Virus record (IMG/VR): IMGVR_UViG_3300031992_000016
Coordinates: 96,001-160,000 of that record
DNA from: a virus
Taxonomy: Duplodnaviria; Caudoviricetes
DNA length: 64,000 nt
Reading direction: 5' to 3' (one strand)
Part shown: positions 1-64,000 of the stretch, piece by piece
Layout of the letters: each line of letters begins with the position of its first letter
Numbering within the stretch: position 1 is the stretch's first letter
The notes under the pieces: model-generated
Databases searched by the model: none
Seen by the model: the letters and a program-made list of their open reading frames with translations, nothing else
What the model was told of the DNA's origin: nothing
Made by a program: the position numbers and the translations under genes

Positions 1-3000
1 GTGTCACCAGTAATAATATTAACATCCGCCGTCATGTTGTTAGTACCATCTAATTTTAAATAAACGGTATTATGATTATGACCAGCAAGAGCAAAGTATG
101 AATCAGGATGATAAGCTGATGCACCAATTGTAGTGCCAGCAATTACTTTACCACTTGAATCAATATAAATTGGCTAAGTAGCAGTACCAACAGCCGCACG
201 CGAATCAGTATATAATGCTTTTACCCAAGGCTACCAGCTCATTGTATTAACATTATCTACCTTCACTGTTTTTCCAAAACGATGATGAATTTGATAACTG
301 CTATCATCAATAAAAATTTGATGTCCATAAGTAGAATGCCATGGAATATCAATAATCATACCGTCATTTGAATTCCAGGTATCATTGTCATTCATTGCAA
401 TAGATGATACTTTCGCAGCTTGAATACCAATACCATTGGTATGGAATGCATCAACTGCTTCTTTAGTAGTTAATTGTGCATGATATTTTAAAATACTAGC
501 AGTATCAGCATTGCCAGTAACATTACCATTAAAAATCCATTTATTATCTGCACCTGCATAAATAATCCATTGACTAGCTTTATCATCATATAAACCATGA
601 TTAACATTTCCAGTTCCAACACCCCACCAATAGCTAATCGTTGAACTATACTACACTTTTATTTCTGCCTAACCGCCTGCAGCGTGTGTTGCAAGTACAT
701 GACCATTTACAATGCCTGCATATAAATTCTTCCAAGCAAAACTTGCAGTACCTAAATTAAATTCATTGTTCTTACCTGGCCGTAATGCGGTTTTACCATC
801 AAATAATGCAATAGTATTATCATAACCAGTAGCAAAACCAATAGCTAAAGAGCCAGTTTCTGGATAACAGATATAACTTGGACCACTATTATCTGCGGTT
901 CTTGTAAATTCAATATGTTTAATCGCGGTTTTGTCACTGAATATTAATCGTTTTACTTCTGCACTATTTAGAATTTTTGTATCTGTCTATACTGTATATA
1001 AATGGTCAGTATATTGATATACTGGATGAGTAGCATAAAGCATAATACAATATGTATTATAAGCACGACCCAACAAAATATAGCAATTACCATCATTAGA
1101 AGAAGGTAATGCCTATACAATTGGACTTGCTGATGCAATTTTACATTTTCTTCCTGTTGTTGGTGTAACTTTCAAATAAACATTCTTATGTGCCGTTAAA
1201 GTTGTACCAGTATTAAACGTATAACGTAAATCTACAGGATAAGAATAATATAATGCGCCAGCACTAATTGCCGCATCTGCATTAACTGTTGTGGTTGTAC
1301 CATAATAATAGATTAAACCATCGAGTAAGAATTCTTGGCTGGTAAGCATTGTCTTACTAGTGCCAGTTGAATTGCTTGTACTAGTAAGCGCGCATAAATG
1401 GTCTTCATCAACCTAAAATAATAACTAATATCTATAAATAACATTTGCAGCAATATGATTGCCATTTGCAATATATAAGTTAGAAATGGTTGTACTATTA
1501 CTGTCATAGTAATTTAATACTCTAAACGCACCGCCAGTTACAGTTGTCGCATTAACAGAATCAGCACCATCTATAGGAGTCATACTCGCTGCTGAGCCAG
1601 CAGCTTCAAACGTTACCCATAAATAATTATTAACAGGATAATGTGTAGTTAATCTACCAGTTCCATTTAAAACAACTGGATAGTAATTAGTACCATTATT
1701 CATGGAAATATAAACGCCCCAAGTGTGACCGGCGACAGGAATTTTAATTAAGAAAGTATCACCATCAGCAACATTTCTACCAATATTATAAGTCCATTTA
1801 ACTGGAAAATAACGCGGTGAAACACCAGAACCTTTATCTTGTTGTGCAGTACCAGTACCAGTAATTAAATTATTAAATACTTTACTATGTACTGTATCAC
1901 TAAATGTGCCATTAGTGCTATATACACCATTAAATTCATGTGATGCATCACCCAAGGAATGGGTTTTAGTTGCATATGAATAAATAGAACCCTAAGTAAT
2001 ATACAATGATTTAGATGCTGTATCCATCGCTGAACCAGTACCAGGACGAAGAAGAATAGCATTAAGCGCATTAATTGCAACATTGCCATTACTTGCTGCG
2101 GCCATATATGCTTGTTCTGTCTTAATTGTACCATTAGAATTAAGAGTGTACCAAGAAATCCTATTATTTGCAGCATTACTAATAGCATCATTAGCAGCAG
2201 TAAATTGAACATTGCCTCTAAATAATCCGCCTAAATCATCTATAATACGTATCCAACGAGTACCAACAACAGCGCCTGCATTTAAACGCTTATAATATAA
2301 ATGATTTGTGCTACCAAAAGGTACTGCTAAATCAGTATAATACCCATTGCTATTGCTATGATGCATTCTTAAAATATGCCACCAGGCTGTAGTTGGTGTA
2401 TCATTTACTTGCGCGGCATGTCCCGCCGTACCATTAATATCAAACCAACGCAAACCAATTAAATTATAATCAGTACCATCATTACGTACTAAACATTTAG
2501 CGCCTGTCGCAGTTCCATCTAAATCACCATGGAACTTATAAGCATATACAGTTTTCCATTGATGCGAAGTATCGCCTAAATCTTGAGCATTATCCGCGCC
2601 TGGACGCACAAGTCCAGTCTTATAAATAACCAACTGTTGATTTGCACTATCTCCTGTGCCAAAGCCAACAGCCAATACAGATGCGGCATTATCAGGATAA
2701 GTAACATAATTCCAACTACTACGGCTAAATTTAATATGTGATTCCGCAGCAGTACTTGCAATGGTTACTGTTTTTGTATTAGTTTCACCATTAATAGTTA
2801 CTTTACCTTTAGCAAAATTAGCAACTTGCGTACCAGTAGTTGCGCGAATAGTATCCCAAGATCCAGATAATGCGGCTTCATAGACTTGAACATCTACCTA
2901 ATTAGCAAACAATCTTATTCTATCAGGACCACTAGTATTATTTACATCATTACCTTTAAATAATAATAATTCACTTTTTTCATTAGCTGTATCTTTTGGT

Positions 3001-6000
3001 CCATAAATAGATTCACCAATATAAGTATGATTAAAACCAGCAGGACCATCACCATATACACCATAAAATGCAATATAGTTATTGCTACCAGAGTCGGCAC
3101 TAGCATAACCGTTTTGCCCGCTCCCAGTACCTGCGGTATCACTACTACCAATTAATAATGGTCCTTGTAACCAAGATTTACCACCAGCGACTTTTAACGC
3201 ATAATTTACATCTGGAGCAATATTAATACCTAAATGAGGTCTAATACTCCAACCAGTTGCCGCATGTCCTTGAATACGACTTGCTGCACTATTAGAACCA
3301 TTATAGCTAATATAAAAATTAGAATCAGTAATATCTGCTGCCGCAGCTGTTGCATTTGCTGGCGTTGAATATGCTCCAACTAGCCAAACACCATTACCAG
3401 TACCATTAAGAGTGCCTTGCGTACCACCAAGAGTTACAACAGACCAACCGTTTGAAGATCTATTAATTCTAATTCCTTCTGAGTATGAATTAGAAGTATT
3501 ATAAGAACCATTAATAACAATATGGCCATTAACAGTAATAAGATTGGCACCATTAGATACTGCTGTTCCACTATCACCAAATTTAATACCTGAACTATTG
3601 ATTTGTGCATATTGACCATTAGGCCCAACTTGGAACGTGCCGTCTGTGCGGAAAGTGCCGCTATCTTGATAAACATTCTTTGAACCGACGGTACGTATCC
3701 AAGTCTCATCAGTCATCTTCCAGCCGCCACCATTTGCAAATATTAAAGTATTATTTGTTAATGCAGTATTAGTATTATAAACTTTAAAACCATTAACTGC
3801 GCTAATTTGATGATCGAAATAGTATGATTTATCTTGACCATTTGTAAAATGTATCCAAGAGCCATTTTGCGCGCCAATTTCTACAGTAATACTATGATTA
3901 CTTATTTTTAATGTACCACCACTAATAGTGTCAGACCAAGTATTATCACCGCGCCAAAATTTAGCTGTCGTGCCGCCTGATGTAGAAATAGTTGCGGCAC
4001 TACCGGTAATGCTAATAGGCCACGTACCACTTGCGCCAGTACCAGTTAAAGTAGGTGTGTATAAATTATAATTTTTATCATCTAAAATAGTTGCCCAAGA
4101 TTTCCAAGGATTTGTACCATCAACTACATTCCAACCTGAACGATAACGAATACCATATGCTTTACCTTGAGCAGCGCTAGCATTATGACTAATATAAAAC
4201 TAAACAGCCCCACCATTACCAGCACGTATTACATATAACGCGCCATAGGCATATGGGGCATTTTGATTAGTCCCTGGATTATTAGTACCAGTAAAACCAT
4301 TACTAGAAGCAACATAATACGCACCTGTCGTAGTAATATCCCAAGAGCTATCAACACCAATATTGGTAGGTGCTTTGATAATATCATCTAAAGTACCAGT
4401 ACCGCCTAAGCTGATAGTTTTGTTGCCAATAGTAATGGATGAATTTTCTAACTTACTATTAGCAATAGAACCAGCTAACATAGCATTAGTTACTTTTCCT
4501 GCCCCAATAGTAGTGGCAACACTCCATCCCTTTGTGCTACTGCTTGACTCACCAGTTACGTCACCAGTTAATTTAACTGTTGTCCCAGAGGTAAAAGCCG
4601 CTGCGCTACCAGCCTTAGCAGTATAATCTTTATAGCTAACAGTTACTCGATGCTCTGTTGGTATAATAGAAGCATCATCTGCCGTATTATCAATGACTGA
4701 CCAGTCTTGTGAATAATCTCTTGTTAAATTGCTTGGCCAATATTCAAACATATCAATATTAAAATGAATATAATATGCTTCTGGTAATACCGCAGTACCA
4801 ATTAAACCCAGACCAATAGCAACATATTCTTGTCCATTTTCAGTATATGAAGATAAAGTAATTACTGGTCTATGTTCAGTGTTAGATGTTGCACTATAAT
4901 TACAAAATTCACCGTTATAAATATAAAAAACCAAACCTAATTCAGTTGGTAGTCCAGGATTATAATTATCCATATGGAAAATCAATTTTGGCATTACGTT
5001 TCCACTAGTATATGGAATTCTTGTTTTAATTAAAATTTCTTTTGGAGTACCAGATGTACCATAATCAATTACATTATGGAAATATCTACCAGTCTATGTT
5101 TTACCTGGCATAATTCCATCGGTACGGAAATGATAATTTGTACCATCATAATATACAATATAATTGCCGCCAGGCAATGTATAGTTTGAAGAAGAAGATG
5201 GCTTGCCGTTAATCCAAACCGGCTTATCTCCTGTTCCGCCAATATTTAATGTAAATGCGCCTTGATAAGTATTATCATAATAATGAGTATAAGGGAACTA
5301 TTTACCTGCTGTTAATTGAAATTTCCAACCGCCAATCGCGATTTTAGCTTGTTTAGCTGCGCCGCTAGTTGAAGTATTCTCATATGGGAACATATAAGAA
5401 TATGTATTATTATAATCAGCATTAGATAAAATCCAATAAGTACCATTATATACAAAAAGTGCGATTGCATCAGCACGCAATTCATTAGTTGATGTTAAAT
5501 TAGCAATATTCGCATTATATAATTTTTTAATATTTTTGGCGCCTTTACCATTAACATTTAAAGTTAAATTAGCAACTGCAGCAGTATTAGTATTACTAAA
5601 TGAAACAACTAATATGTCACCAGTCTATAGCTAATTATAATCTGCACACGTAACTACCTTTGCGGCAGTACCTGCAGCGGTCGCGCACGTACCATAAAAG
5701 ATACGTCCATTACCGGAAGCTAAATTTAAATCACTTAAACTATAACTATTGCCTAATTGTAATGTTTTATTATTTAAAATAAGATAACGACGTTCATCTT
5801 CTGGGGCAGGCGTCCAATATGTAGCTACAGGTCCGCGTTCCAATTTAATATTATTTAATTGTAAAAAATCACCTGCGGCATACTGATTAGTTGTTGTATT
5901 AGTACAATATAATCTAAAATACAACATTGTAATATTCGTTGGCAATACAAATGTAAATTCAACTCTTGTCCCAGTAACTGTTATTCCTTTTCTGGCAGAT

Positions 6001-6605
6001 GTAATTTCTGCAACACGTTTGCTTTGCAAAGCAGTTGTATCAAAAGTGCCAGCTGTCGTTTTATCTACATATAAATCTAAATTAATATAATAAGTAGTGC
6101 TATTAGTTGCACCTGATAATAATTTATAATCTAAATCAAAAGCAAGTGTGTATTCTGTATTAACAGCCAATGCGTCAAGATTATTAATTTTAATTTGATT
6201 AGCATTAGCAGTATTACTACTACTGCCTAAATATAAAGCTGCCTAACAAGCTGCGGTTTCTTTCAAAATTAAACCATGCGCATCGCTCGCTGTTAAAGTA
6301 CAATTACTTGCTGGCGTAAAATGATATACACCATTTAAATTTGGTAAATTATTATTATCTTTAAATAAAGTATTTTGTATTAAGTTTCTACCAGCAACAT
6401 CTGTGCCGACTAAATAATCTGCCGCGCGTGCATTCAGTGGGATACGATTGACACCCACTTGTGCCTAGTTCGCATCAGCAATATCAATATAAAACTTGCC
6501 ATCATCTTGCGTAAAATAGGCATACCCTTCCGTAGCCTTATAAGTAGAGTTACCTGTTTTACCTAGTGCTGATGATGAGCCTTTTAAAATTTTAAAGAGT
6601 GCCAA
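1..6605 (-). CDS. Long modular tail fibre / receptor-binding protein, >2200 aa, 3' end outside the window (TAG read as Gln)
   Basis: TTG start at 6605 behind SD AGGAGG. Track fragments ending at 6243, 5631, 5298, 4200, 2898, 1992, 1425 and 1113 all end in TAG and share one frame, which stays open to base 1. Motifs: N-terminal LFKILKG..YFTQDDGKFYID, GRNL...KLERGPVATYWTPAPED carbohydrate-binding-type domain, GDVTG fibre repeats, GGGWKMTDETWIR, and Gly/Thr/Asn-rich fibre modules. Confidence 0.85.
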
Positions 6606-6680
6606 TCTTCAGCCCCTCCTATCTCATCAAACTCTATATAGTATTATAAAACTAATTAGATAATTTATTAAAAATAGTCC

Positions 6681-6720
6681 AAAAAAAAATAAGGGTTAAG
6701 TGAATACTCACTTAACCCTA
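6681..6720 (-). terminator. Rho-independent terminator
   Basis: Stem AGGGTTAAGTGA / TCACTTAACCCT followed on the minus strand by a T9 tract, directly after the TAA at 6725. Confidence 0.85.
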
Positions 6721-6724
6721 TATA

Positions 6725-7432
6725 TTAAGATATTTCAGTTACATCATTCCAATAGCGACTTTCCATTAATTCTTTAAACTAACGAGTTAATTCGTTATAG
6801 TTCTGTAACATAATTAAATACTAACCATCTTCATAAATGGTTTCTTCTTCTGGAGTTGGTTGTAAAGCATCTAACCCATACAAAATTTTTGTATGTACTG
6901 CTTGTGTGCGCAAATTATATATGTAATGATAATTACTTGGATCATCTTCATCTTCGGCTAAGCGATAAAATCTTAAACCAAATTGAAGAGGTCCAGCAAC
7001 TTTTGTAGCAGCACCTTGAATTATCCAACCAAGTACCATATAGCCAGGATAACTCGTTAAATCTTTAAATAAAATTGGCGAAACATGACTTTCACCGGCC
7101 GCATTTACATATTCAATAACTGCGGTTGTACGATTTAAATCCATATCGTCAAAATAACGAGGTACTTTAAAGAAAATCGTTTCTGCTAAATGGTCTTTTT
7201 CTACACTTAAAAATTCTTTATAAGCAGGTTGATTTTCGATAAGAATTGTTCGGGAATTTAAATCTACGTCAATTAAAGGAGTAGTAGTAGGACATACCCC
7301 GAACAACATCTTATCTTGATAATTCTACTCTATTGTATAAAGAAGGGCTTTTAATACATTTGCGGCACGATTAGTAATCTCAGGATTTGCTACAACTCCT
7401 ACTCCAGTAGCAATTTCTTGTTGAGTTGCCAC
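6725..7432 (-). CDS. BppU-like (baseplate upper protein N-terminal domain) protein, 235 aa
   Basis: GTG start behind AAGGAGG, in-frame TAGs at 7325, 6821 and 6779, TAA stop at 6725. Motif EKDHLAETIFFKVPRYFDDMDL...GPLQFGLRF is paralogous to the upstream gene. Confidence 0.7.
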
Positions 7433-7449
7433 AATAATCCCTCCTTATA

Positions 7450-9435
7450 TTAAGTAATGTTAGGTGGATCTTGTGTAAGTTTATTAACTGCAGCATTGCA
7501 TCTAATTTGAATAGTGCCTGCTTTAGAATAATCAGAGAAAATCTCTTTATCAAACAATTGAGTGCGACCCTTAAATGTAAGCATATAGAAGCCTCTGCTA
7601 CTATCGCGCTGGAAAGCAGGATGGTCTTGCAAGAATTTTAAGAAATCAACAGAAACCACACCAACGTTACTTGTCTGTGCGTTAAGTGCTTCAAATGAAG
7701 TAACATATTCGTCTTCGATAGTAATGTTGAAGGCTAACTCACCAGCATCATTGGATACAAACTGCGCGGTAACGCCAACACTAGCTTTATAGTCATCTTT
7801 ATTTGGTGCAGTTGCTTCATATGTGTCATCACCGATTTCCGCAGAAGCACGGAAATTCATAATCTTACATTCAACCTGAGTACCAGCGGCGTTCAAGTCA
7901 ATGTCAAATGCAGGAGCAACTGGATACAATTGAGCATTTACAGATACGCCTGCGCCCTTCGTTAATGAACTATTCTGATAGGTATTAGTAACATTAACTG
8001 TATATAAACCAGCTTCAGTTGGAGTATATTCTGCGGCAATAGCACCATCAATAGCATTGTTATCTTTATACCATTGATAACTAATTTCGCCATTCTCATG
8101 GTCTTTCTTAGTTGCGCTAACACTAATGCTTTCTTTATCACCAGTACGATTAATAACTAACTCAGTTGGCAATTCTTGTACTACATCAAAATCAGAAGCA
8201 GCAAGAATACTGGTCATATCACTATCAATCCAACGAGTTTCATACTTCCCAGCAGTTTTTTCAACCTTATTACCAATCTTGACATAATAGTCGCCGGGTA
8301 CCTTGGTCTTTAATACGCTGTCCCAAATATTAGTAATAGTAGTAGTTGGTTCATCGCCCTCATTCTCTGCAGGAACAGTTTCAACACGTCTATTGATTGT
8401 ATGATTGACAAGATTAGATTCATTAACTAAATCCCACTCTGGCCAACGCTCTAAGAAACGTGCTTTCATTTCTGAATCAGAAATATCATCAGCGATTGCA
8501 GCACCATTATAATAAAGTTTATAAACAACTTGTGCATCAACAAATTGTCCTTTATTAGCTGCTGCGGCAGCATCTAATTCTGCAACAGTATTATCTTCAC
8601 TTGGAGTAAGTACAACTTCATAATTTTGTACAATATTCTTTTCTCCGAAGCTCTGTACGCCAGCGCCCTTTGGATAATAATTCAAATGAACAATAGGTGC
8701 AGGCATCTGTAACAAACTTGCAGTTCCACTATAGCTTGGACGATTATCTACAATACTAGACCAATCAGTTACATCTTCGGTAAAATCACCAGAAATAGTA
8801 TTCTTTACAGCAACCTTTGCGGCCAATGTGTGCTTTTCAGCAACAACTACTTCATCAATGTTCTTTAAAATAAATGTAACAGCAAAATCAACTGTACCAG
8901 CTACTGAGGCAGGGCCTGACTCATCACCAGAAATGGCCCAACCAAACCACATATGTTCATCATCATAGTCGATATAAAGCGCCTTATCAGTGCCAGATAA
9001 TGTGCCGTTATGCCATTGAATTAAAACTGAACCATGTACGCCGGTATTTTCATCTAAACCAACACAAGCAGCCAAGTCCATTGTATCAAAGTAACGAGGT
9101 ACTTCAAAGAATACAACTTCTGCGAGGTGGTCGCCAACAACTGCAATACCATTCTTTTGGAAATCAGCTGGGACAGTAATAACACCGCTATTTGTATTAA
9201 TAACAAAATACTGTTCATCAAATGGAACTCTCACATACAAAGGTAAGCGAGTCTAATCTATATTAGGCTTATTACGAATAATATCTAATGCTTCGTAATA
9301 TTGAGACAAAGTTTCTACTTGTTGTAACCCAGAGTCAGCAGCCAATTGTTTTCCAATAGTCATTGGCTCTGCATTTTCATTCTCAAATAGAACTCTGTTT
9401 AAACCCCTAGTTAAGGATTCTTGAGTTACTAGCAT
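7450..9435 (-). CDS. BppU-like N-terminal domain plus Ig-like domain baseplate protein, 661 aa
   Basis: ATG behind AAAGGAG. ORFs 9253..9435 and 7450..9240 are joined through a single TAG at 9253. Motifs GDHLAEVVFFEVPRYFDTMDL and Ig-like ISYQWYKDNNAIDGA...GLYTVNVTN. Confidence 0.75.
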
Positions 9436-9460
9436 AGCTCCACTACTCCTTTCTCATAAT

Positions 9461-9490
9461 TCGAGGAGTGCATTAAGATGCACTCCTCGA
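9461..9490. promoter_or_regulatory. Perfect 13-bp inverted repeat without a U-tract
   Basis: TCGAGGAGTGCAT-TAAG-ATGCACTCCTCGA in the intergenic region, just upstream of the SD of the gene starting at 9435. Confidence 0.6.
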
Positions 9491-9524
9491 TATCTATATA
9501 CTTATCAAAAAATTATTAAATATA

Positions 9525-9740
9525 TTATACTACTTCGTCCCGCATACTAATTTCATACCAATTAGTTGCCTCATCTTCTGGCACGGTCACTGTAACCATT
9601 TTGCGCGTACCATCTGTTAATAACTTCCCAGCATCTGCGCGCAATCTAATCAAACGTACATAATATACATCTTCTAAGTGGATAGGAGTTTCTAACACCC
9701 CATTAGTTCCAAGATAGCGATAAATAACTTGACGTGTCAT
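9525..9740 (-). CDS. Small protein (71 aa) following the large LRR/CotH protein; possible fibre chaperone
   Basis: ATG behind AAAGGAG, TAA stop, no TAG. Function inferred from position only. Confidence 0.7.
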   Translation of the reverse strand: MTRQVIYRYLGTNGVLETPIHLEDVYYVRLIRLRADAGKLLTDGTRKMVTVTVPEDEATNWYEISMRDEVV

Positions 9741-9758
9741 TTGAGTATCTCCTTTCCA

Positions 9759-19606: not shown

Positions 19607-19623
19607 GTACCATTCATCTCCTT

Positions 19624-20877: not shown

Positions 20878-20948
20878 AACATTTTTCACTCCCTTTCTAT
20901 ATGGCTTGGTCTTTCTATTATATTCAAAATCACATAAGACAGATTAGT

Positions 20949-22697: not shown

Positions 22698-22698
22698 A

Positions 22699-52706: not shown

Positions 52707-52715
52707 CATTTTTTC

Positions 52716-53240: not shown

Positions 53241-53273
53241 AATAACATCTCCTTTATCTCAATACTTATTTAT

Positions 53274-53302
53274 AATATACCATATTTTTTTTATTTTGTC
53301 AA
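53274..53302 (-). promoter_or_regulatory. Sigma-A/sigma-70-type promoter
   Basis: Minus strand reads TTGACA-N17-TATATT with an extended -10 TG, 33 nt upstream of the ATG at 53240. Confidence 0.75.
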
Positions 53303-54544
53303 TTATGAATCTGCGATAGACGCTAAAGTAGATTTTGAAATTTCAGTTATCCAATCTCCTTTTTGTTTATGTATCATTTCATTAACTTGAGTATAGATTT
53401 TGCTAATAATTTCTGCTGTACTAATAACATAAATGTTTGCACTACCAGGATCATTATATACTAAATAATTAGCACCTAAATCACCAATACCATCTTTCTT
53501 TAATTCATTTCTAATAATTTCGTCTACATAAGTTTGACCTCGACCTGTTAATTCATAAATAACACGTAACTACTATAAAGCTAATCGTACATCTTCACGA
53601 TGAGTATTACGAGCATAATAAAAAATACTAATTGAAACACCATAAGGAAATCGAGTATTAAGCAGATCTAAATAAACACGTTTACTTTTTGTCTAACCAA
53701 AATGAACTGAACGTACTCTTGACTAAATGGCATTTGTAATACCTGTCGCGGCGTCTTTAATATATGATAAACTATTATAGTTTTTTGCAGTAAAATAAGC
53801 TTTATGCAATAATTTAGCAATATGCATTAATTTAGATCCGGCGGTTGCAGTAATTGTTAATTCAACTGCATGTCCATTCACATCGACTTTACCATTAACA
53901 GTAGTTGTTACAAAATCATCGGCAGATGTTCGTTCATCAAACAGGCGTTTAATTTTATCTGCTTCCTCTTGTACTGCAGCATTAGCAAGATCACTTATTG
54001 CTCCATCAATCATACTACGCAATGGAGTATGCGCACCTTTCGTACTTACTGAATGCCCCATAACATTTACTTTTGCGGCACCAAAAATAACATCATTTAA
54101 ATTGGCATTTTTTGCTCCTCCAAACTACTAAGTCGCCATACTGATAGCCGCCAATTCGCCTTCTAAAACATCACCTTGCGTCCAACCTTTAGACTTCAAA
54201 CCAGTGCGAGTAAAAAAACCTCTGCCACTAGCGCCAATAACAGAACCCGCTTCTTGTAAAATCTAACTTAAAGCTTGTTGCTAAATACCACTTTTTAATG
54301 ATATATTCTCAAAACCCTTATTACCTTTATTAGATAAATTTTTTAAATCACGAAAAAAATCTTGCAATTCTCTTGCTTCAGCAGCACTACCTGCTCCTTC
54401 AACTGCTCCGTGACTATTACCAAGACCATTCATAATATTATTATACTCGCTCATTAATTCATCACGCATCGCAGTTAATGCTTGATAAGGATCTAATCCT
54501 TCATATGCTTTATATCGTTCACCTAAGTGTAATAATCTTGGCAT
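53303..54544 (-). CDS. Hypothetical tail-region protein, 413 aa
   Basis: ATG at 54544 behind GGGTGA. Fragments ending at 54281 and 53723 are joined through TAGs, TAA stop at 53303. Confidence 0.7.
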
Positions 54545-54601: not shown

Positions 54602-54616
54602 GTATTATATCAATAA

Positions 54617-55699
54617 TTATTCACCAAAACGCTTTGGAGGTTCCTTACCAGAATCTTCATAAATGTCGCCTGGGAATTTAGTATCACCCTCAACTGCGCC
54701 ACGAGTTGAACCATCATAAAGTGCAGTATCTTCAACAATCTGAAGAGCAGCAATTACTTTCTTGGTCTTATCAAACTTAGTATAGTCTGGGAAAGCATCC
54801 ATTGTGAAAGTAAAGGTAGAAGGATCACCAGTAGGTGCCATTGTGAAGGTAAAGTTAGACTGAACCTTGCAGTTAGGAATGATAAATTCAGCAGGATAGT
54901 CTTCACCAGTTGCTTCATCACGGAACAAAGTAGAAGCTTCAAGATAATAAGAACCACCGAACTTACCAGCTTCAATATCAATCTGCTTTACATACTGAGT
55001 GCTCTTTACATAATAGTCAATATAAAGAACAGAACCTGGATCATCGCCCATGCCATTAACGTAGTCATATACTTCCTGTGGATTCTTAGCATCCTTATAA
55101 GCATCTACGTTTGCTTGGAACTCAGTGCCAATAGGAGCATGAGCATCCATGATCTTACCAGCGACCAATAATTCATTATGAGCAGCATTATAAGCAGCAG
55201 CCCAATGAGCAAAGATTTCTTCAACGTTCATTTCCTTAGCAATATCATCACGTTGAATTTCCATAGGAATACGATTGGTATTAATAGAACCATCAGCATT
55301 CTTCAACATAATATACATGCTACCACCCTTGGCTGGCTCATGAGCAAGAGTAATCTTACCTGCTTTAATCTGAACCTGCTCAGTAGTATGTACATAAATA
55401 GGATGATCTTCATCAGCATCCATGAAACCAGCACCAGAAAGAATTGAGAAGCTTTCTGGACTAATCAAAGCATCTTCCATTGTAAATGTTACAGTACGGT
55501 CGCCTTCCCAAGCTACCAAGCGAGGATTACCTTTACCGCCCTGAGCATAAACAGTTGTGCTCTGGCCTTCCAAAGAAGAAGTCTTCAATGTTTCAAAATA
55601 TAACACAGGCATATCCTTGTCAAGATACAACTTACCGAAGAAACCTGCTGCCTTACGACGAAGTACAACATCGCAAATTTCGCGTACGCCAAATCTCAT
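54617..55699 (-). CDS. Major tail (tube) protein, 360 aa
   Basis: ATG at 55699 behind AAGGAGG, preferred over the track start at 55738. Motifs MRFGVREICDV, AQGGKGNPRLVAWEGDR, FTFTMAPTGDPSTFTFTMD. No TAG, followed by a strong terminator. Confidence 0.8.
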   Translation of the reverse strand: MRFGVREICDVVLRRKAAGFFGKLYLDKDMPVLYFETLKTSSLEGQSTTVYAQGGKGNPRLVAWEGDRTVTFTMEDALISPESFSILSGAGFMDADEDHPIYVHTTEQVQIKAGKITLAHEPAKGGSMYIMLKNADGSINTNRIPMEIQRDDIAKEMNVEEIFAHWAAAYNAAHNELLVAGKIMDAHAPIGTEFQANVDAYKDAKNPQEVYDYVNGMGDDPGSVLYIDYYVKSTQYVKQIDIEAGKFGGSYYLEASTLFRDEATGEDYPAEFIIPNCKVQSNFTFTMAPTGDPSTFTFTMDAFPDYTKFDKTKKVIAALQIVEDTALYDGSTRGAVEGDTKFPGDIYEDSGKEPPKRFGE

Positions 55700-55716
55700 A
55701 TGCGTTTCCTCCTTAA

Positions 55717-56475
55717 TTAATGTAAACTTTTCATCCAATCGTCTGGTTTACTGTCGGGTTTTCCGCCAGCCAAACGTGATCTTATATCTAAATCCCACCC
55801 GACATATAAGCCGTATCTCTCAATCAAATCATAGAGCTGATAGACCGTAAGATTAAGGCAATCATCCAGACTCATGGATTCCAGAGCAATGGTGAGAATA
55901 GAAACATATCTAGATAAAACACCATCATTACCACCCGAGCCTCTACGCCGAGCAGCTTCACTACGACCCTTCATTAATTTCGCCGCAATTGCAGCAGCTT
56001 TATTACCTTTTGGATTATAATTTGAGTTCTAACCACCAGTCGCATTATTTAATCCACACACTTCTGTTAGAATTGCTTGCACAGTATCAAAATTATTTTC
56101 ATCAAGAGTAAAAGAATGTTTTGTCGTAGCGTTATTAAAAAAAACTCCCATAGGTAAAAACTATGCAGTATATCCTGGGAAAAACAACATAAACAGTTGT
56201 TCGATGGTATTTTTCCGCTTCCCCGAATCCTAAATATTCGGGTTAGCTACTAATGTCATAAATATCTAAAAATTATTAAGGGCGGCTAAACTAGAAGCGC
56301 CCTATCCTGTCTAAGATGCTAAAAGCACTTTTCGATTAAAACACACTAACTATAAGGCTAAAAAATATTCTTCTTCACCAATTAATGCAATTTCCGCGAT
56401 TTTAGGCTAGTGGATTGTAGTCTATAACTCAACTACTGGGATATTAGTCCCAGCCATTAAAGCTAATGAATTCAT
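55717..56475 (-). CDS. Tail assembly protein (chaperone-like), 252 aa
   Basis: ATG overlaps the upstream TGA (ATGA), many TAGs, TAA stop at 55717. C-terminal LNLTVYQLYDLIERY. Confidence 0.65.
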
Positions 56476-57005
56476 AATAATGGGTTCCGCTAATCTTCTT
56501 CTCCGTGAATAGCTTCATAAGTTAAACATAAACCCATCAACTAATCATTAAGTAAAAGATTGCGCCCAGTTAAGAATTGAGTTTCCCCAATTCCAGTTAA
56601 TTTTTTCTTATTGAAAAGACTATCAATTTCACCAGCAATCTTATAAGGACGTAACTAAAAATTGCCTAAATTCCAATGATCAGGATGACAAAGAATGTCA
56701 AATTCAATAATACAATCTCGATACACTGGATTCTTTTTATTTGGCTAAAAATTATCCATTGAAATTAATACGTAATTAGGACACTCAGTAGAAACTTCTA
56801 GCTAAGGAACTATACGTATCTACTTATGAATCATAGAATATTTTTGTTCTTGTGTTAAATCATTTGCTTTTAAACAATCTTTTTCAGTATAATAAAGTAA
56901 TTTCATTAAACGTTGATCTTCCATCATTTTTTGAATAATCAACGCCAAATCTTTATCGACCGCCAAGAAACTTGATTTAGGAAAATAATCTTGCCCAACA
57001 ATCAT
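56472..57005 (-). CDS. Putative tail completion/terminator protein, 177 aa
   Basis: ATG behind AAGGAGGAG, TAG read-through to TGA at 56472. IEFDILCHPDHW...RPYKIAGEIDSLFN motif and neck position. Confidence 0.65.
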
Positions 57006-57022
57006 ATTAACTCCTCCTTTAA

Positions 57023-57988
57023 TTAAAACAATGATTCAACAACAATAGTTTTATGTAAATCTTCAATTAGCATATCATTATGAAATACAATTTCAAATTC
57101 ACCACTAACCATTGGCAACCATTTTACAATTAAACCATTATCTTGTTCATCTACTCGCCATTCAACTACATCATCAATATCTTTATTCTAAGATGTTGAT
57201 ACTACTGACCAGTCACCGCGAATACGACGATTTACATTATATTTAACTTCCTATCTTGGCTTAATAAATACTTCACCATCAATAGAAACATCAAATATAT
57301 TCTGCTTAGGAGGATTAGGATCGGTAGGCTCAATTATATATTCATCTCCATGACATTCATAATCTTCTTCTGCGACTATTTCTAAAATACCGGGTGTACT
57401 AATACTGTCAGGAGCCTGAACTTTCCAATATCTACCTTCAAATTCAAAGCGTTGATAACGTTCTAGCGCACGTATTGTTTCCTCAGTGCGTTTTACATAT
57501 ATGTCAAGAGTTAAATTAGGTACATCAGCAGCAATACCGTGCTTTTGAATTGTATTAATTTTAGTTTCAACAGGCCCGCGCACAGCCATCCATAAACCAA
57601 ATTTTTCTTTAGTTTCTGGATCAGTAACTTCAACCCACTAGGCTCTGCGGCAATTTCCTCTAAAATATGCCAATTCAGTTAATTCTTGTTTGAGTATTAG
57701 CCAATGAATACCAGACTCTTTTGGCCATTCAAAACTATCTCCTGGCTTAAAATCATATCGCCAATCAACAGAGATAATCTTTTCATCATAGTCAAATTTT
57801 ACTTTATCAGGATTAATTAATGCTAATACCCATTCACTGTCTTCTTCATCTTTTTTAATCCAAGCATGTTGATAAGAATAAAGAAGCGCACGATGGAATG
57901 AACGTCTTTTATCTCGAACCATGCGGTCATGTTGGCGGTCATTAACCGCGGCACGTGCGCGAGCGCGCAAATTATCTAGTGCGTCCAT
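57023..57988 (-). CDS. Putative head-closure / neck protein, 321 aa
   Basis: ORFs 57638..57988 and 57251..57589 are in frame through TAG and continue to TAA at 57023. Tandem beta-barrel-like motifs FKPGDSFEW...WLI and QRFEFEGRYWKV. Confidence 0.65.
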
Positions 57989-58301
57989 CTAACTAATTCG
58001 CTAAATCAGTTAATAGTGAAATTGCACTAAAAACTGTTTTGCGATATATCATAAAATCGGCTTCGTCAAGCAGACCATACAATTCAGTAACAAATACTAA
58101 AAAGTCTAATTCACCGCCAAATATTTTGTCTAACCCACGAAGTTCAAGTAATACAGTTTTAATCTATCCTTGCCAATCCTCTTGATTTTCACGCATCGGC
58201 AATAATTTCCAAATCTGATTGACCAGACGACGCAAATCGGTCACTACAACACCTGGTTCAAATTTGAACTCAGTTGTTTCTGATTGCTTCCCACTTGCCA
58301 T
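57972..58301 (-). CDS. Small neck-region hypothetical protein, about 109 aa (absent from ORF track)
   Basis: Hand translation MASGKQSETTEFKFEPGVVVTDLRRLVNQIWKLLPMRE..., two TAGs, TAA at 57972. Fills the gap between neighbours. Alternative start at 58313. Confidence 0.6.
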
Positions 58302-58851
58302 AATCAATACCATTATCGCTATCTGCGTCGCCAGATCCTTCATGAATAATCTTAACAGTACCAGCTAATGCAGCTTCTTCTTGCTTTGGAATAGCACTAT
58401 CATTAAGCATATGCCAATTAGACATAACATGTCCAGTTTCTGGTACAATTTTACGCCGCTTATATAAACGTTGTGCGTGAATATTCTCGCGCCACACCTC
58501 AGTCTTTAAATTTAAAAGCTTCGCAAGATGATTAGCTTGCGAAGTAAATTTAAAATCTGAACCGCTATATTTCATGCGTGTATTTTCAATAGAAGAAATC
58601 TGTCGGTCCAACCATACGACTTTCATTAAAATAGCGAAAATATTAATTTCTTCTCTGGTTAAATCAACATTGTATTGCTCTTGATCTGCGTCATAATCAT
58701 ATAGAGCAAATCTTGGAAATTCAAAGTAGGATATGGCATCTAATAGAATCTATTTACAATCACGAATAGTATCTTCCTCAGTCAATTCCAAATACTAATC
58801 ATCTGTAATTTTACCAAGGAAGGCATTATAAATAGTTTCAAATGATGTCAT
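58270..58851 (-). CDS. Putative head-tail adaptor, 193 aa
   Basis: ATG at 58851 behind AAGGGGGAG. MTSFETIYNAFLGKITDD...YSGSDFKFTSQANHL, two TAGs, TGA stop. Confidence 0.65.
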
Positions 58852-58852
58852 A

Positions 58853-59452
58853 TTACTCCCCCTTTGCCTCTTCTTTCTGCACTACTTTATACTGAGGAGT
58901 AGTGCGGCGACCACTAGTTTTAGTTTCGGCCTATACTCTACGGGTAGGTGCAGCCTTTACTTCCATACCACTATCAGTAGTATTTGCTTCTTCAGCCTGC
59001 GCAGCTTCAACTTCTGCCTTATGCTGCAAAGCAAGCGTTATATCAAAACCAGTCTTTGCTTTAAGAGCTTCGCGCTTACGCGCATCATTGCAAGGCAATT
59101 CATAAGAATATTTCTTGATTAAATCTATTACACCATCAGGCGCAAAATCAAGGCAATCAAGGAATGCTTCAACGCTACCATTTTGAATTAAATCAATAAC
59201 GCCTTTTTCATCCAAATAATATTCAGGTTCAATCCGAATAGGCATTTCCTTCACTACTTCTGTATCTTCAATAAATAGACTATCACGAAGCATTACAGTA
59301 CCACCTGGAACAAAACTTAAAGCATCCAACTCTTCACGAGTAAGATTTTTTACTTCGCCAGGCTACCATTCGCGGCGAATGCCCATATCTGGAATCGTAT
59401 AAATAAGCATTCTACTACTGCGATTACGCACTTTAATTTTATTGTCTGCCAT
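58853..59452 (-). CDS. Hypothetical protein after the major capsid gene, 199 aa
   Basis: ATG at 59452 behind AAAGGAG, TAGs at 59363 and 58931, TAA stop at 58853 abutting the next start. Confidence 0.75.
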
Positions 59453-59480
59453 ATTTTTTTACTCCTTTTTCTCTTAAATT

Positions 59481-59506
59481 AGGACCGCCGCACTGGCGGC
59501 GGCCCT
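59481..59506 (-). terminator. GC-rich hairpin after the major capsid gene (weak terminator or stabiliser)
   Basis: Minus strand AGGGCCGCCGC-CAGT-GCGGCGGTCCT followed by a poor U-tract (AATTT). Confidence 0.55.
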
Positions 59507-59518
59507 TATATATGATTA

Positions 59519-60574
59519 TTAATCGCCCGTTTCATTTGCAGAACGTGTAACATTCAATTGACCTTTAAGAGCATCGTCGATATATACGCAGATGTCTGGA
59601 GTCATAACAACACCAACGCCTACTTTCTTATAGACCTGAATTTCACGGCTGCGATCCTTATTGACATATTCATCAACAATAGTGCTACCTTCCATAACAA
59701 CCTTGGCAGGCTTTACAGCACCTGGAAGAATATAGCAATAACCTGGGTCAATAACCTTTGTCTGATGAGTTGCATCAGTGAAGCCCTGTGGAAGAATAGT
59801 AATAGGATGATTCTTATAAGAAGCAAAACGACCATTATTCCAAATAGTATCCTTCATATTGTCAGAATACATAGCAGCATTAGCAGGACGAATCTTAGAA
59901 GCAAATTCTTCAGTGCAATAAATGGTAGGAGTACCATAAGCTGCAGCGATAGAAATTAAACGATCAAATGCTGCTTCATCCCAACCAGTAACTTCAGCAG
60001 TATTAAGAGCTGGAAGCTGATTCAAACCAGTCTTCAAAGCCTGACCGATTTCCCAATAAATGAGTTCGTCAAGACCTTCCATAACAATACGAGTTACCTC
60101 AGCAAAATCAGCACGACCATCAAGGAACTCTTCCAAACCAATCTGAGCGGCACCGCCGATAGCACTGGTCTGTACTTCGATAGGCGTATCTTTACCAAGC
60201 TTAAATACTTCGTAAATACCAGCCAAACCGACCTTGGTGATGAACTGCTTTGCACGCTGACGATCATGCCAACGCATAAAGATAGCCTTGTCACCCTGAG
60301 CCATGGTCTTTACTTCGGCAAACTTGCCATATTCCTGCTCAACTTTACGAGGAAGAACATCATCCATGGTCTGTTCGATTAATTCAAAGATAGTATTCTT
60401 ATTTTCACGATAAAGAGCAAAAGTGCCTGCATACTCATTGAGTTCTTTACGAAGGGTCTCATTGAGTGCATCATAGGTGAGATTCTCACCATTAAATGAA
60501 TATGCAACAGGAGCAGAGCGATCGGCCTTAGCTGTTGCCTTCATCAATTGAAGAAGTTCTTTCTTATCCAACAT
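59519..60574 (-). CDS. Major capsid protein (probable HK97 fold), about 351 aa
   Basis: SD AAAGGAG, ATG at 60574 (alternative TTG at 60580). IFELIEQTMDDVLP, AIGGAAQIGLEEFLDG, YKKVGVGVV. Position after the protease/scaffold genes, no TAG. Confidence 0.8.
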   Translation of the reverse strand: MLDKKELLQLMKATAKADRSAPVAYSFNGENLTYDALNETLRKELNEYAGTFALYRENKNTIFELIEQTMDDVLPRKVEQEYGKFAEVKTMAQGDKAIFMRWHDRQRAKQFITKVGLAGIYEVFKLGKDTPIEVQTSAIGGAAQIGLEEFLDGRADFAEVTRIVMEGLDELIYWEIGQALKTGLNQLPALNTAEVTGWDEAAFDRLISIAAAYGTPTIYCTEEFASKIRPANAAMYSDNMKDTIWNNGRFASYKNHPITILPQGFTDATHQTKVIDPGYCYILPGAVKPAKVVMEGSTIVDEYVNKDRSREIQVYKKVGVGVVMTPDICVYIDDALKGQLNVTRSANETGD

Positions 60575-60594
60575 TGTCAATCTCTCCTTTCCTA

Positions 60595-61344
60595 TTACTG
60601 AAGTCTCATAATTTTAACAGCTGGTTGCATATCGCCAAGATTATAAACCTTAACTACCTGCCATACCATACCAGCAGGAAGAGCAGGAGCATTTTCACCA
60701 CTAGGAGCGGTAACCTTAACAAGATAACCATCTTCGCCTGGGGCCAAAAGATCACCACGAGCTAAAGAACCTGGATCTGCTTTAATGCAGTTAGTAGTAA
60801 AAATATCACCCTCATGAGTCTTAAAGAGACGAGGTACCATAATACCCTGGGTATCAGTAAAGAGCTGTGGCTGATTTAATACTTCAACTTCATACTTGTT
60901 ACCAATAGCAAAATGATTACGACCAAAATCTTCACCAGGATAGGTTTCGGTATGTCCATCTGGATAAATCTCACTATTAGCACCAATAGTCTTCATCAAA
61001 GGATTAAGATCAACATTATTAGCACCGGTTACACCAACTGGGCTATAAACAGAGCCGGTATAGTCACGACGGATCATTGCGAAGTCCTGATCGGTTTCGC
61101 CCTTGGCATAAACCTTTACTTCGTTATAAACTAACATCCACTCGCCCTTGCCGGTAAAATTGACTACATTATTAGCATAGTCATACTTTGCAAACTGACC
61201 ATTCTCAAGAATCTTAATATTCTTAGCTGCTGGCAACTGTGCATAAATCTCGCCAGTGCGCTGTGCAGACAAATGGTTAGGTTCAACCTGACCGAAGCCA
61301 TAAGTTACATAAGTGGCTACCGGTGAAAGTCTTTTAAAAGCCAT
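60595..61344 (-). CDS. Capsid-associated (decoration/cement-like) protein, 249 aa
   Basis: ATG behind AAGGAGG. GFGQVEPNHLS, ILENG and GDIFTTN motifs. Lies between scaffold and MCP, no internal TAG, stop TAA followed by TAG. Confidence 0.65.
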   Translation of the reverse strand: MAFKRLSPVATYVTYGFGQVEPNHLSAQRTGEIYAQLPAAKNIKILENGQFAKYDYANNVVNFTGKGEWMLVYNEVKVYAKGETDQDFAMIRRDYTGSVYSPVGVTGANNVDLNPLMKTIGANSEIYPDGHTETYPGEDFGRNHFAIGNKYEVEVLNQPQLFTDTQGIMVPRLFKTHEGDIFTTNCIKADPGSLARGDLLAPGEDGYLVKVTAPSGENAPALPAGMVWQVVKVYNLGDMQPAVKIMRLQ

Positions 61345-61365
61345 TGTAGCTTCCTCCTTTATTTA

Positions 61366-62703
61366 TTACATATTTTTGGCGGTTTCGCGCACGGCCTTAA
61401 TCCAGGCAGGAGCGTTATCTGACTCGCCCGTTTCATCTAAATTGAAAGTGAAGTCTTTTTCAGGCTTCTTTTCAGTATCAAGGTCGAAACTTACCTTGTT
61501 ACGAACACAAAGAATACATAATTTAGCTTCAATATCGTCCAAAGAATATTCATCAATCTTTGAAACTACATCAGCCTTATCGGCATCTGTAAGCATATAG
61601 AAACTATCAATCATGTCTTGCTTAGCCTTGCGATCGGCATCAGCCTTGAACTTGCGCAATGGCTCAAGTTCAGCAGTAAGAGAATTTACCTGCTCTTGAA
61701 GAGAAGCGAACTGTGATTGAAGATCCTTGTAAAGTTCAGACTCAGTAATCTCTTCATCAGAAAGAGAATGCTTGGTCTTTTTCTTCTTTTTATCTTCGTC
61801 TTCATCATCTTCTGGTTCAGACTTGTCATCCTCACCATCGCCTTTATCAGATGCGGGCTTGTCTTCTTCCTTCTTCTTTTCATCAGAAGGATCTTCGCCT
61901 TTATCTTCTGGCTTGTCCTCGTTTTCTTCCTCGTCCTTGGGCTTCTTCTTAAATTCAGTATCATCGTCCAAGGGGAGGTTCTCTTCAACAGGAGGATTTA
62001 ATTTTTCATTCTCATTGTCCATGTGAGCATTTCCTCCTTTTTCCAGCATTGCTTTAATTTCCCCGACCATAGCATACATTGTCTGCTTAAAGTCATCATC
62101 TAGGGAGAATGTTGCAGCAATTCCGGCGCCTTCAAAGCAAGGTTCGCAATCCTCACCGAGAATGCAAAGTTTGGAAATTACTGCCTCATTGATTATAAAA
62201 AATTCAGGCCATCCATTATCGTCAAATGACCAATCTCCGTTAGTAAGACTTTCATCTAACTCCATTGATTGATTATTCCCATTTGTTAAAATACGCTTAG
62301 ATTCTGGATATGCCCCAGTCCAAATCCACCCTTCGGTCATTAGATACTCATGATCTACGCCATCATCAGTGAATGTTTGAAACCATACTTTTGCGTTCAT
62401 ATCTACAAATCCATAAGGACGTGTAGTATCAACAATTCTTATGCCATCGCCACGAATTTCTAAGTTCTTATTATGCTGCTCAAAATCATCTTTGTTTTCA
62501 TTATAAAAACCAACGATTGGGCAGCCCGGCAAAGACTTAGCCATTTCAGTCGCAACAGCCTTGGTGATAACACTACCATTGCGGTTAGGTTCATCACCCA
62601 CATAACATACTTTAATTTCACAATGTGAAATTAAAGGATTAACGGGAGTAAAATTCAATAATGAAATTGTATTTTCCCGCGGTATGCTTATATGACGAGC
62701 CAT
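61366..62703 (-). CDS. Putative prohead protease / scaffold fusion, 445 aa
   Basis: ATG behind AAGGAGG. N-terminal NRNGSVI...PIVG...QSMEL...LCILG.D.EPCFEGA, then an acidic/Lys low-complexity linker and C-terminal coiled coil. No TAG. Confidence 0.75.
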   Translation of the reverse strand: MARHISIPRENTISLLNFTPVNPLISHCEIKVCYVGDEPNRNGSVITKAVATEMAKSLPGCPIVGFYNENKDDFEQHNKNLEIRGDGIRIVDTTRPYGFVDMNAKVWFQTFTDDGVDHEYLMTEGWIWTGAYPESKRILTNGNNQSMELDESLTNGDWSFDDNGWPEFFIINEAVISKLCILGEDCEPCFEGAGIAATFSLDDDFKQTMYAMVGEIKAMLEKGGNAHMDNENEKLNPPVEENLPLDDDTEFKKKPKDEEENEDKPEDKGEDPSDEKKKEEDKPASDKGDGEDDKSEPEDDEDEDKKKKKTKHSLSDEEITESELYKDLQSQFASLQEQVNSLTAELEPLRKFKADADRKAKQDMIDSFYMLTDADKADVVSKIDEYSLDDIEAKLCILCVRNKVSFDLDTEKKPEKDFTFNLDETGESDNAPAWIKAVRETAKNM

Positions 62704-62715
62704 TTTACTCCCTCC

Positions 62716-64000
62716 TTAACCTTGTGAATTCTTATTAGCGATAGTTTTATCTGATTTTTCACTATCAGCTTTTTCTGGTCGCCCACCTGTATTACTATCA
62801 GATTTGGCCGTTTTACTCTAACTTACTTCGCCCGCAGTTTTACCACTAGAACCAACTGCTTTACCAGACATAGTAGAAGACATCATTGGCGGTATCATAA
62901 TATCAGACAAATGAAGTATCTCATTCTCGAAATGAGCAGTAGCTAAAATAGAACTCTGCCGTTGTCCCATAGCAACAAGAGGTAACATTTTAGAATAACC
63001 AATCTGCACTAATTCTTTATAGAATTTCGCAACTTCTTGGTAATTATAAATGGTAGTTTCTAACATATAGCTGCGGAAACTATACCGTTTATTTGGGGGA
63101 CACTTTTTAGTTATCATTTTATTAAGGAAGGCTTCATACTGTAACAATAAGTTACGCATAGTGGCTTCATCGTTTAAAATAGATGATTGCAAAGCGATGT
63201 TTCCATCACTATTGAATAAATTTTGTGAAACACCAAATTCATTATAGACTTGTCTCTCAATCTTCTCCAAACCATCCGCCGCGGCAGCAGTGCTATTTGA
63301 GTCAGCCATATCTGCAACATCAACGTCCGCAAAGGTAGTTAATACATCAACACCGACCGCACGTTTTAACATACTAACTGCATTATTATGAATATCACGT
63401 GCTTCATCAACGTCGAATATTAAATCACCATTTTTATCAAGAGGCAATTTCTAAATCAATACTTTTAATAACTATTGCATGGTCTTACGACGGTCTAAAT
63501 CCTGCGCCTAGTCTAAATCAATTAATGTAGGAATAGAATTAACCAAAATTGGCATATCCGACCCATTTAAATTAAATTTAAACGCGGCAGCTGTATCCAA
63601 CAAATACCAACCTTCACTATCACCAATGCCATCGCCCATTAGCTTATGCCGCTTATATAATAAATATCCTTCTTGGAAATCTTCTGGGAACATTTTCAAA
63701 ATCTTCATACGATAAACCGCATCAGGAAATTTATCATCAAAGAAGCGCATATTAAATTCAATAGCCGGCATCCCAGCTTTAAAATAGCGACTGCGGCAAT
63801 AATCAGTTGGTAGCTCTTGAATTGTCATACAGTCTTTGGTATCAACCCAATAACCATAATAACAACCATCTCGAATAACCTTTAATGCAATATCGCCAAA
63901 TACTTTTTTGAGATTAGAATTATCTAAATAAGTAAGTATTCGCGCAAATTCTGTCAGCACTTTATCTTCTTTTAATTTATCATCTTCGATAATATATGGC
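62716..64000 (-). CDS. Portal protein, 5' end outside the window
   Basis: ORFs 63508..63960 and 62818..63447 join through TAGs (LIDLD*AQDLDRRKTMQ*LLKVLI*KLPLDKNGD) and end GGRPEK...IANKNSQG at TAA 62716. Position upstream of the protease gene. Confidence 0.75.

Follow-up and report, generated by a model that had tools for sequence, protein, structure and literature searches.

Read with the standard bacterial genetic code (NCBI table 11), a 64,000-nucleotide stretch of a tailed phage genome (bases 96001-160000 of the 168,960-bp IMG/VR virus record IMGVR_UViG_3300031992_000016; hereafter, the window) breaks up into short open reading frames (ORFs) that end in TAG, which raises the question whether TAG is a stop codon in this phage at all and, if not, which amino acid it specifies and how it is decoded. 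The answer that we favor, with a probability of roughly 0.93, is that the window represents the block of late genes, for virion and tail, in the complete, terminally repeated genome (168,960 bp) of a gut siphovirus, in which TAG is a glutamine codon (NCBI code 15). The record contains direct terminal repeats and is rated 100% complete; the G+C content of the window (34%) is lower than that of the whole genome (37%), and every real gene in the window is located on the minus strand. The late block as defined here spans genome positions 82-165 kb and consists of 38 minus-strand genes with 27,178 codons; all coordinates below are those of the window unless marked as genomic.

To compare the genetic codes, we measured coding density as the share of the sequence covered by stop-to-stop frames of at least 100 codons. 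With table 11, such frames account for 62.2% of the window; the share rises to 98.9% when TAG is treated as a sense codon and to 66.1% when TGA is. The large gain for TAG is in line with an earlier note on this DNA, which had proposed, from the letters and ORFs, that TAG is reassigned. Treating TAA as sense yields 92% coverage through 230 short spurious frames, an artefact of AT-rich DNA. For the whole genome, the coding density is 66% under table 11 versus 93% with TAG as sense. When TAG is read through, the window becomes a near-continuous row of minus-strand genes, the largest of which encode proteins of 4552 (38983-52641), 2681 (9759-17804), 2324 (28680-35654) and more than 2201 (3-6605) amino acids (aa) and include 103, 7, 38 and 17 in-frame TAGs, respectively (the last count within the window). 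Altogether, 281 in-frame TAGs are found in 21 of the 27 window genes, so that the description of the entire structural module as recoded holds for most genes but is slightly too strong: six genes (9525-9740, 28260-28649, 54617-55738, 59519-60580, 60595-61344 and 61366-62703) are TAG-free. The breakage of genes under table 11 is real and worse than the roughly 19 fragments of the tape measure gene and 12 fragments of the 28680-35654 gene counted previously: these genes are split into 104 and 39 segments between TAGs, of which 31 and 15, respectively, are at least 60 aa long. Standard annotation would, as foreseen, wreck most of these genes.

Across the late block, TAG occurs in frame 352 times (about 13 per 1000 codons, or 30% of the glutamine-type codons, that is, CAA, CAG and TAG), whereas TAA and TGA, which occur in the off-frames at 41-123 per 1000, are never found in frame. 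All 163 genes called in the genome terminate with TAA or TGA, by construction of the calls, which agrees with the expectation that only these two stops are used. The TAGs are evenly distributed along the genes, with no C-terminal excess (2 in the last 10 codons compared to about 5 expected), and the base that follows them (A.28, C.18, G.29, T.26) matches the base after CAG and differs from that after true stops (T.50). Thus, TAG in the late genes is a sense codon rather than a leaky stop. That most late genes are broken under table 11 could also be taken to mean that the TAGs are real stops in a decaying or defective genome, or result from assembly or sequencing errors, but this interpretation is already refuted by the frame statistics: across the 27,178 codons, the frames are interrupted by TAG alone, never by TAA, TGA or a frameshift, and the TAGs have the base context of a sense codon. 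Moreover, the genome is complete with terminal repeats, and the same pattern recurs in two independent contigs of related phages and in the previously described phage phAss-1, leaving this interpretation with a negligible probability. The accompanying expectations on gene starts were partly supported: AGGAG-type Shine-Dalgarno cores are located 8-15 nucleotides (nt) upstream of 17 of the 26 called starts, and the ATGA overlaps of the earlier note would correspond to 4-nt overlaps at 25446-25449 and 56472-56475, as deduced from gene coordinates rather than from the bases.

For comparison, we used four related complete or near-complete phage genomes, two of which are recoded (G001 and G003) and two, G002 (134 kb) and G004 (138 kb), use the standard code. 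In the latter two, only 1-2 TAGs occur inside 15-18 thousand aligned residues, reading TAG through produces almost no gain in coding density, and TAG terminates 3 of 111 and 3 of 128 genes, respectively. In G002 and G004, ORFs of 3872 and 2883 aa that are unbroken under table 11 match both ends of the tape measure protein (residues 6-526 and approximately 3000-4547), and therefore the 4552-aa ORF is a single tape measure gene. More generally, tblastn alignments with the relatives cross 151 and 159 TAG sites, so the proteins do not end at the TAGs: homologous sequences, encoded by uninterrupted ORFs in the standard-code relatives, span about 150 such sites.

To identify the amino acid, we scored the profile of residues opposite TAG against the substitution profiles of the 20 residues derived from the same tblastn alignments. 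In G002 and G004, Q is found opposite TAG at 54 of 151 sites, K at 31, E and S at 23 each and A at 20, and the log-likelihood is highest for Q (-659), ahead of E (-738), K (-751) and S (-761); with G001 and G003, the values are -657 for Q versus -734 for K. Thus, glutamine, the residue originally proposed, ranks first by about 78 log-likelihood units over some 150 sites in two sets of relatives. Among the 100 TAG sites covered by both G002 and G004, the two agree on the residue at 23, and in 12 of these 23, the shared residue is Q. At the codon level, the standard-code relatives mostly have CAA or CAG at TAG sites, and the codons aligned with TAG in 13 portal-region loci from IMG/VR are CAA (112), CAG (41) and TAG (28).

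The search for a tRNA with the anticodon CUA elsewhere in the genome, which the earlier note had suggested, was successful: no tRNA was found within the window, and among the 33 tRNA genes at 26-39 kb of the genome, there is one tRNA(CUA) (genome 37355-37447, L016:17355-17447; detected by ARAGORN, 55.8 bits against Rfam RF00005), located 58.6 kb before the start of the window. In its D arm and anticodon stem, this tRNA resembles the phage tRNA-Gln(CUG); residue 73 is G, and positions 1 and 72 form an A·C mismatch. Its length, 93 nt, is owed to a variable region of about 20 nt. Over positions 14-83, the extra arm included, it is 91% identical to a phAss-1 tRNA, and an identical tRNA is encoded by a close relative of the phage, IMGVR_UViG_3300021400_000485. 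A tRNA(CUA) with this arm is also encoded in G001, G003 and 33 IMG/VR contigs of 8-412 kb (all but one longer than 50 kb); among the four relatives, tRNA(CUA) is present in both recoded genomes and absent from both standard-code ones.

The size of this tRNA, which is typical of class II and unusual for a tRNA-Gln, bears on the possibility that TAG is a sense codon for a different amino acid, such as serine, leucine, tyrosine, pyrrolysine or glutamate. After Q, E and K rank highest among the residues aligned with TAG, and glutamate in particular could be incorporated if the host produces its Gln-tRNA via a non-discriminating glutamyl-tRNA synthetase (GluRS) and the amidation step fails. ARAGORN, furthermore, labels the tRNA 'Pyl', a label that we rejected as a naming convention because the program prints it for any CUA anticodon. 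However, Q is ahead of E, K and S by 78-100 log-likelihood units in two separate sets of relatives, and serine, leucine and tyrosine are rare opposite TAG (23, 10 and 2, respectively, of 251) despite being 35-57% self-conserved in the same alignments; therefore, the class II identity suggested by the tRNA size is ruled out. With respect to the D arm, anticodon stem, G73 and weak 1:72 pair, the tRNA also resembles tRNA-Gln and differs from the phage tRNA-Ser and tRNA-Leu, and TAG is found in late genes where early genes have CAG. Collectively, these observations make any amino acid other than glutamine very improbable.

In all 14 distinct members of this tRNA(CUA) family, the variable arm forms a hairpin whose 7-nt loop reads CUCUGAA in nine, CUUUGAA in four and UUCUGCA in one, with the consensus YU-YUG-MA that has the Gln anticodons CUG or UUG at its center; in the phage's own tRNA(CUA), the loop CU-CUG-AA is a copy of a Gln anticodon loop. 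In the 7-nt-loop register, the stem includes at least two loop-adjacent pairs in 14 of the 14 members and three in 13, with compensatory changes from C-G to G-C in three, U-A to G-C in one and C-G to U-A in one. An alternative fold with a 4-bp stem and a 3-nt loop, obtained with RNAalifold from a MAFFT alignment, was rejected: it fails in L062, L071 and G003. The MAFFT columns are out of register in the arm region. A literature search identified no paper describing a variable arm with a spare Gln anticodon (a 'second anticodon'), and this arm, although located outside the window, is the one element of the system with real potential for novelty.

Several observations were made in the vicinity of this tRNA and its homologs. 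In eight IMG/VR loci, a second, ordinary tRNA(CUA) of 75-78 nt is encoded beside the long-armed one. A 412-kb contig (IMGVR_UViG_3300011989_000257) encodes a different long-armed tRNA(CUA) (L070:149-240) with A73, a large D loop and an arm loop lacking the Gln motif; this contig may belong to a jumbo phage with a suppressor of different identity. In the phage described here, the suppressor tRNA gene is immediately followed by a match to YrlA, a Y RNA-like RNA (genome 37466-37572, L016:17466-17572; 32.4 bits, below the gathering score of 69), and a DUF2828/DUF7788 (Ro60-like) protein is encoded at genome 43627-45159.

Six-frame searches of the complete genome for release factors RF1 and RF2 (PF00472, PF03462) and for glutaminyl-tRNA synthetase (GlnRS) and GluRS (PF00749) produced no matches, with the control genomes positive; hence neither of the two proteins sought on the suggestion of the earlier note, a phage RF2 and a glutamine-tRNA synthetase, is encoded. 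With no phage GlnRS or GluRS, a host enzyme must therefore charge tRNA(CUA). This leads to a scenario in which the host uses the standard code and the early replication genes would be translated as they stand; the phage tRNA(CUA), loaded with glutamine by the host enzyme (a proposal made because the phage encodes no GlnRS, GluRS or release factor), would then accumulate and outcompete the host RF1 at UAG, after which the TAG-bearing late genes, among them those for the tape measure, tail, portal, terminase, sigma-factor-like protein and lysin, could be completed. The extra arm with its YU-YUG-MA copy of the Gln anticodon loop may supply the anticodon signal that is missing from the CUA loop. 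TAG would have arisen mainly from CAG by C-to-T substitution where slow or gated translation was tolerated, and the most abundant virion proteins would have kept CAG. We therefore put forward tentatively, at somewhat less than even odds, the possibility that the code change functions as a translational gate that depends on one tRNA: the hairpin could let the host Gln-charging enzyme accept a CUA tRNA without a phage synthetase, and TAG would replace CAG only in the gated genes (among them those for the sigma-factor-like protein, lysin and tail), the genes for the abundant capsid and tail-tube proteins retaining CAG.

The distribution of TAG along the genome is pertinent to this possibility. 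TAG accounts for 30% of the glutamine-type codons in the late block versus 5.8% in the plus-strand block at genome 39-81 kb, and the genes for DNA polymerase III alpha, gyrase A and B, DnaB and RecJ are TAG-free. The genes for the anaerobic ribonucleotide reductase NrdD (genome 76288-78525) and a xanthine/uracil permease (genome 42238-43524) contain two internal TAGs each, which sit inside full-length alignments with Pfam families or homologs; therefore, the recoding is genome-wide but graded and reaches metabolic genes, in contrast to the uniform recoding assumed earlier. The NrdD sites fall on variable columns (L/N/Y and T/T/I opposite) and are uninformative with respect to the residue. Among the late genes themselves, four (encoding proteins of 373, 353, 249 and 445 aa) have no TAG among 45 glutamine-type codons (p = 2e-7) and prefer CAG (35) to CAA (10), the reverse of the other late genes, where CAA is far more frequent than CAG (230 CAA, 18 CAG and 103 TAG in the tape measure gene). 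These four genes, in which TAG is avoided, probably encode the most abundant virion proteins. CAG makes up 34% of the glutamine-type codons in early genes, compared with 11%, plus 30% TAG, in late genes, and thus TAG resembles a C-to-T replacement of CAG. The stretch 7450-17804 is TAG-poor, with shares of 0.04-0.07 versus 0.30 for the block (p = 0.002 and 5e-8), and richer in CAG; the 661-aa and 2681-aa genes in it have homologs only in G001 among the four relatives, and this stretch may represent a cassette that either was acquired recently or differs in expression.

The same data bear on the alternative that there is no code switch, that is, the host itself reads TAG as glutamine and the phage simply matches its host. 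No phage gene needs TAG as a stop, and TAG is present in some non-structural genes, as this alternative would have it. No bacterium is known to use code 15, though, and the replication genes avoid TAG (the 5.8% versus 30% share), the phage possesses its own tRNA(CUA), and G002 and G004, with portals 54-59% identical, use the standard code and lack tRNA(CUA). Borges et al. (10.1101/2021.08.26.457843) also predict standard-code hosts for such phages. A host with a matching code is accordingly very unlikely.

Returning to a phage-specific glutamine code, three points weigh against it, or at least against its simplest form. Neither an RF2 nor an inhibitor of RF1 was found in the phage, which bears on how termination at UAG would be overcome. 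The support for glutamine as the best residue at TAG is statistical, drawn from alignments, and TAG sites are less conserved than ordinary glutamine sites, with Q opposite 21% versus 31%. The switch between early and late genes is not clean given that NrdD, the permease and several small left-arm genes contain TAG; some early translation of TAG-containing genes may be needed, or these genes may not be early.

The genes of the window are described here from right to left, as they are read on the minus strand. At the right edge, the gene for the 533-aa portal protein (62716-64000, extending beyond the window; phrog_2739, E 6e-79) contains 5 TAGs, 4 of these in the window, and its product is 41% identical to the phAss-1 portal and 30% identical to Enterococcus phage portals. 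It is followed by the TAG-free head-assembly block (59519-62703; proteins of 353, 249 and 445 aa matching phrog_4088, phrog_35301 and phrog_3313), with 26 CAG, 8 CAA and 0 TAG codons; judging by the position after the portal, these proteins are probably the capsid, scaffold or protease. The head-tail connector and completion region (55717-59452) encodes proteins of 252 aa (9 TAGs, share 0.75), 177 aa (6), 321 aa (3), 214 aa (3) and 199 aa (2), with matches to phrog_4051, phrog_6123 (virion structural), phrog_31155, phrog_3853 and phrog_30998. Next is a 373-aa major tail protein-like gene (54617-55738; 9 CAG, 2 CAA, TAG-free; phrog_2729 virion structural protein, E 3e-58), with a homolog in Bacillus phage Thrax5 that is annotated as the major tail protein. 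Two genes between the major tail and tape measure genes (52716-54544; 174 aa with 2 TAGs and 413 aa with 8; phrog_30570) occupy the position of tail chaperones.

The tape measure gene (38983-52641; 103 TAGs, no TAA or TGA) starts with GTG preceded by AAAGGAG and encodes a PF10145 PhageMin_Tail domain at residues 186-394 (E 1e-26). Only its two ends are conserved in the relatives (2883-4306 aa), the middle being variable; a 72-bp tandem repeat is located inside the gene at 46449-46677. In phage lambda, the tail length amounts to about 0.15 nm per tape measure residue, a rule that, if applicable here, predicts a tail of near 680 nm from 4552 aa. Right after the tape measure gene, in the distal tail position, a 1089-aa protein is encoded (35630-38899) in which 27 TAGs make up 48% of the glutamine-type codons, followed by a giant 2324-aa protein of the tail or baseplate region (28680-35654; 38 TAGs), with no family assigned. 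Two tail proteins of 794 aa (16 TAGs, share 0.53) and 936 aa (15 TAGs, share 0.42), encoded by genes with a 4-nt overlap (23065-28256), match phrog_32343, phrog_1887 (tail protein) and phrog_30026. Further on are four late genes (17879-23046) for proteins of 575, 421, 590 and 115 aa with 4, 3, 5 and 1 TAGs, the 421-aa one with a weak Phage_tail_C match; the TAG-poor stretch (7450-17804) with genes for 661 aa (1 TAG), 71 aa (0) and 2681 aa (7; phrog_14959); and, at the left edge (3-7432), a 235-aa gene (3 TAGs) and a 2612-aa late protein gene that runs off the window (the N-terminal 2201 aa inside; 17 TAGs in the window, 20 in total). Most of the virion proteins, including the presumed capsid, the terminase and the giant proteins, have no match in Pfam, and those in PHROGs are mostly to families of unknown function; the TerL assignment has weak support (phrog_5909, E 3e-5).

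Two genes of the late block outside the window deserve mention. The first gene of the block (genome 163612-164682, L020:3612-4682, minus strand; 6 TAGs) encodes a sigma-factor-like protein with an HNH/endonuclease VII-like C-terminus (phrog_5767, E 2e-47); should late transcription be driven by this protein, the suppressor tRNA would be required for its own production. The second-to-last gene (genome 82405-83850, L019:2405-3850, minus strand; 6 TAGs) encodes a lysin with SpoIID, NlpC/P60 and SH3 domains, a combination that points to a Gram-positive (Bacillota) host.

Protein similarity places this phage among large siphoviruses related to the phAss-1 group. The best portal matches among deposited phages are the 12-kb human-faecal contig MT836163 (58%) and phAss-1 (OQ749652; 41%); the major tail-like protein is the closest in identity to a human-faecal contig (52%) and phAss-1 (42%), each over 62% of the query only, with full-length matches to Enterococcus phages at 38-39%. 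Next after phAss-1 come large siphoviruses of Enterococcus, Lactococcus (949 group), Bacillus (Tsamsa) and Brevibacillus, and SPbeta-like phages. All 83 portal and 69 major tail matches are to phages of Bacillus, Lactococcus, Enterococcus, Staphylococcus, Brevibacillus and Clostridium or to phAss-1, with no crAss-like or Lak phages among them; the phage belongs to neither of these two groups, which the earlier note had named as gut phages with this code. The protein identities of about 41% argue against membership in the same genus as phAss-1.

The phage group and the TAG-to-Gln code change have already been published and are not a new phenomenon; the genome described here is a larger, complete and more divergent member of the phAss-1-like recoded siphoviruses. 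Annotation under table 11 would fragment about one third of it, including nearly all virion genes, so that re-annotation with code 15 is required. Together with its two recoded and two standard-code relatives, this phage makes up a clean comparison set for the origin of recoding, in which TAG stops are nearly absent from the standard-code relatives, TAG stands in the place of CAG in late genes, and the genes for what are probably the main virion proteins are TAG-free.

Among the known systems, one analog of the suppressor tRNA is the Escherichia coli amber suppressor supE (glnV44), a point mutant of tRNA-Gln with the anticodon CUA and a normal, short variable loop that provides only partial suppression. 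Like supE, the phage tRNA is of the Gln type and reads UAG; unlike supE, it decodes sense TAGs by the hundreds and contains an extra hairpin, the loop of which resembles a Gln anticodon loop.

Among the closest precedents for the entire system are phAss-1 and its relatives, which Babkin et al. (2023, PMC10607447) described as a monophyletic group of human-gut phages (the proposed Phassvirus group) with Clostridia as the predicted hosts; in several members, TAG is used for glutamine, tRNA-Sup-CTA is encoded without a dedicated synthetase, and the tape measure is about 3150 aa long. In both phAss-1 (OQ749652) and the present phage, TAG is read as glutamine in the genes for the terminase, portal, tape measure and tail; tRNA-Sup(CUA) belongs to an extensive tRNA array, and aminoacyl-tRNA synthetases are not encoded. 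The two also have in common DNA polymerase III alpha and a giant tape measure, which in phAss-1 reaches 3149 aa; the capsid and polymerase genes are outside that paper's recoded list, and the clade mixes standard-code and recoded members. The present phage differs in its genome size (169 kb versus 136 kb) and in the number of tRNA(CUA) genes (one, compared to two or three). Its tape measure is longer, at 4552 aa, it encodes several proteins in the 2000-2700 aa range that phAss-1 does not have, and the identities are only 41% for the portal and about 42% for the major tail protein.

The same TAG-to-Gln change is known from crAss-like phages with code 15, where it has been validated by peptides (Peters et al. 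2022, PMC9523058), and here is deduced from sequence; neither the order of those phages nor the phylum of their hosts is related. With the TAG-recoded gut clades described by Borges et al. (Lak, crAss-like, Garnet, Amethyst, Agate and Topaz), this phage shares code 15, a suppressor tRNA and a pattern in which TAG enters the structural and lysis genes and spares those for replication; unlike some Lak and Agate phages, it has no RF2 gene, and unlike Lak and crAss-like phages, its relatives are siphoviruses of Bacillota. In the general model of these authors (10.1101/2021.08.26.457843), stop codon loss in low-GC phages is followed by the acquisition of a suppressor tRNA and then by the recoding of structural and lysis genes, with codes mixed inside clades. 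The close standard-code relatives that scarcely use TAG stops (3/111 and 3/128 here) are another feature in common with these clades: G002 and G004 are in the 'stop codon loss first' state, and the present genome fits each point of the model.

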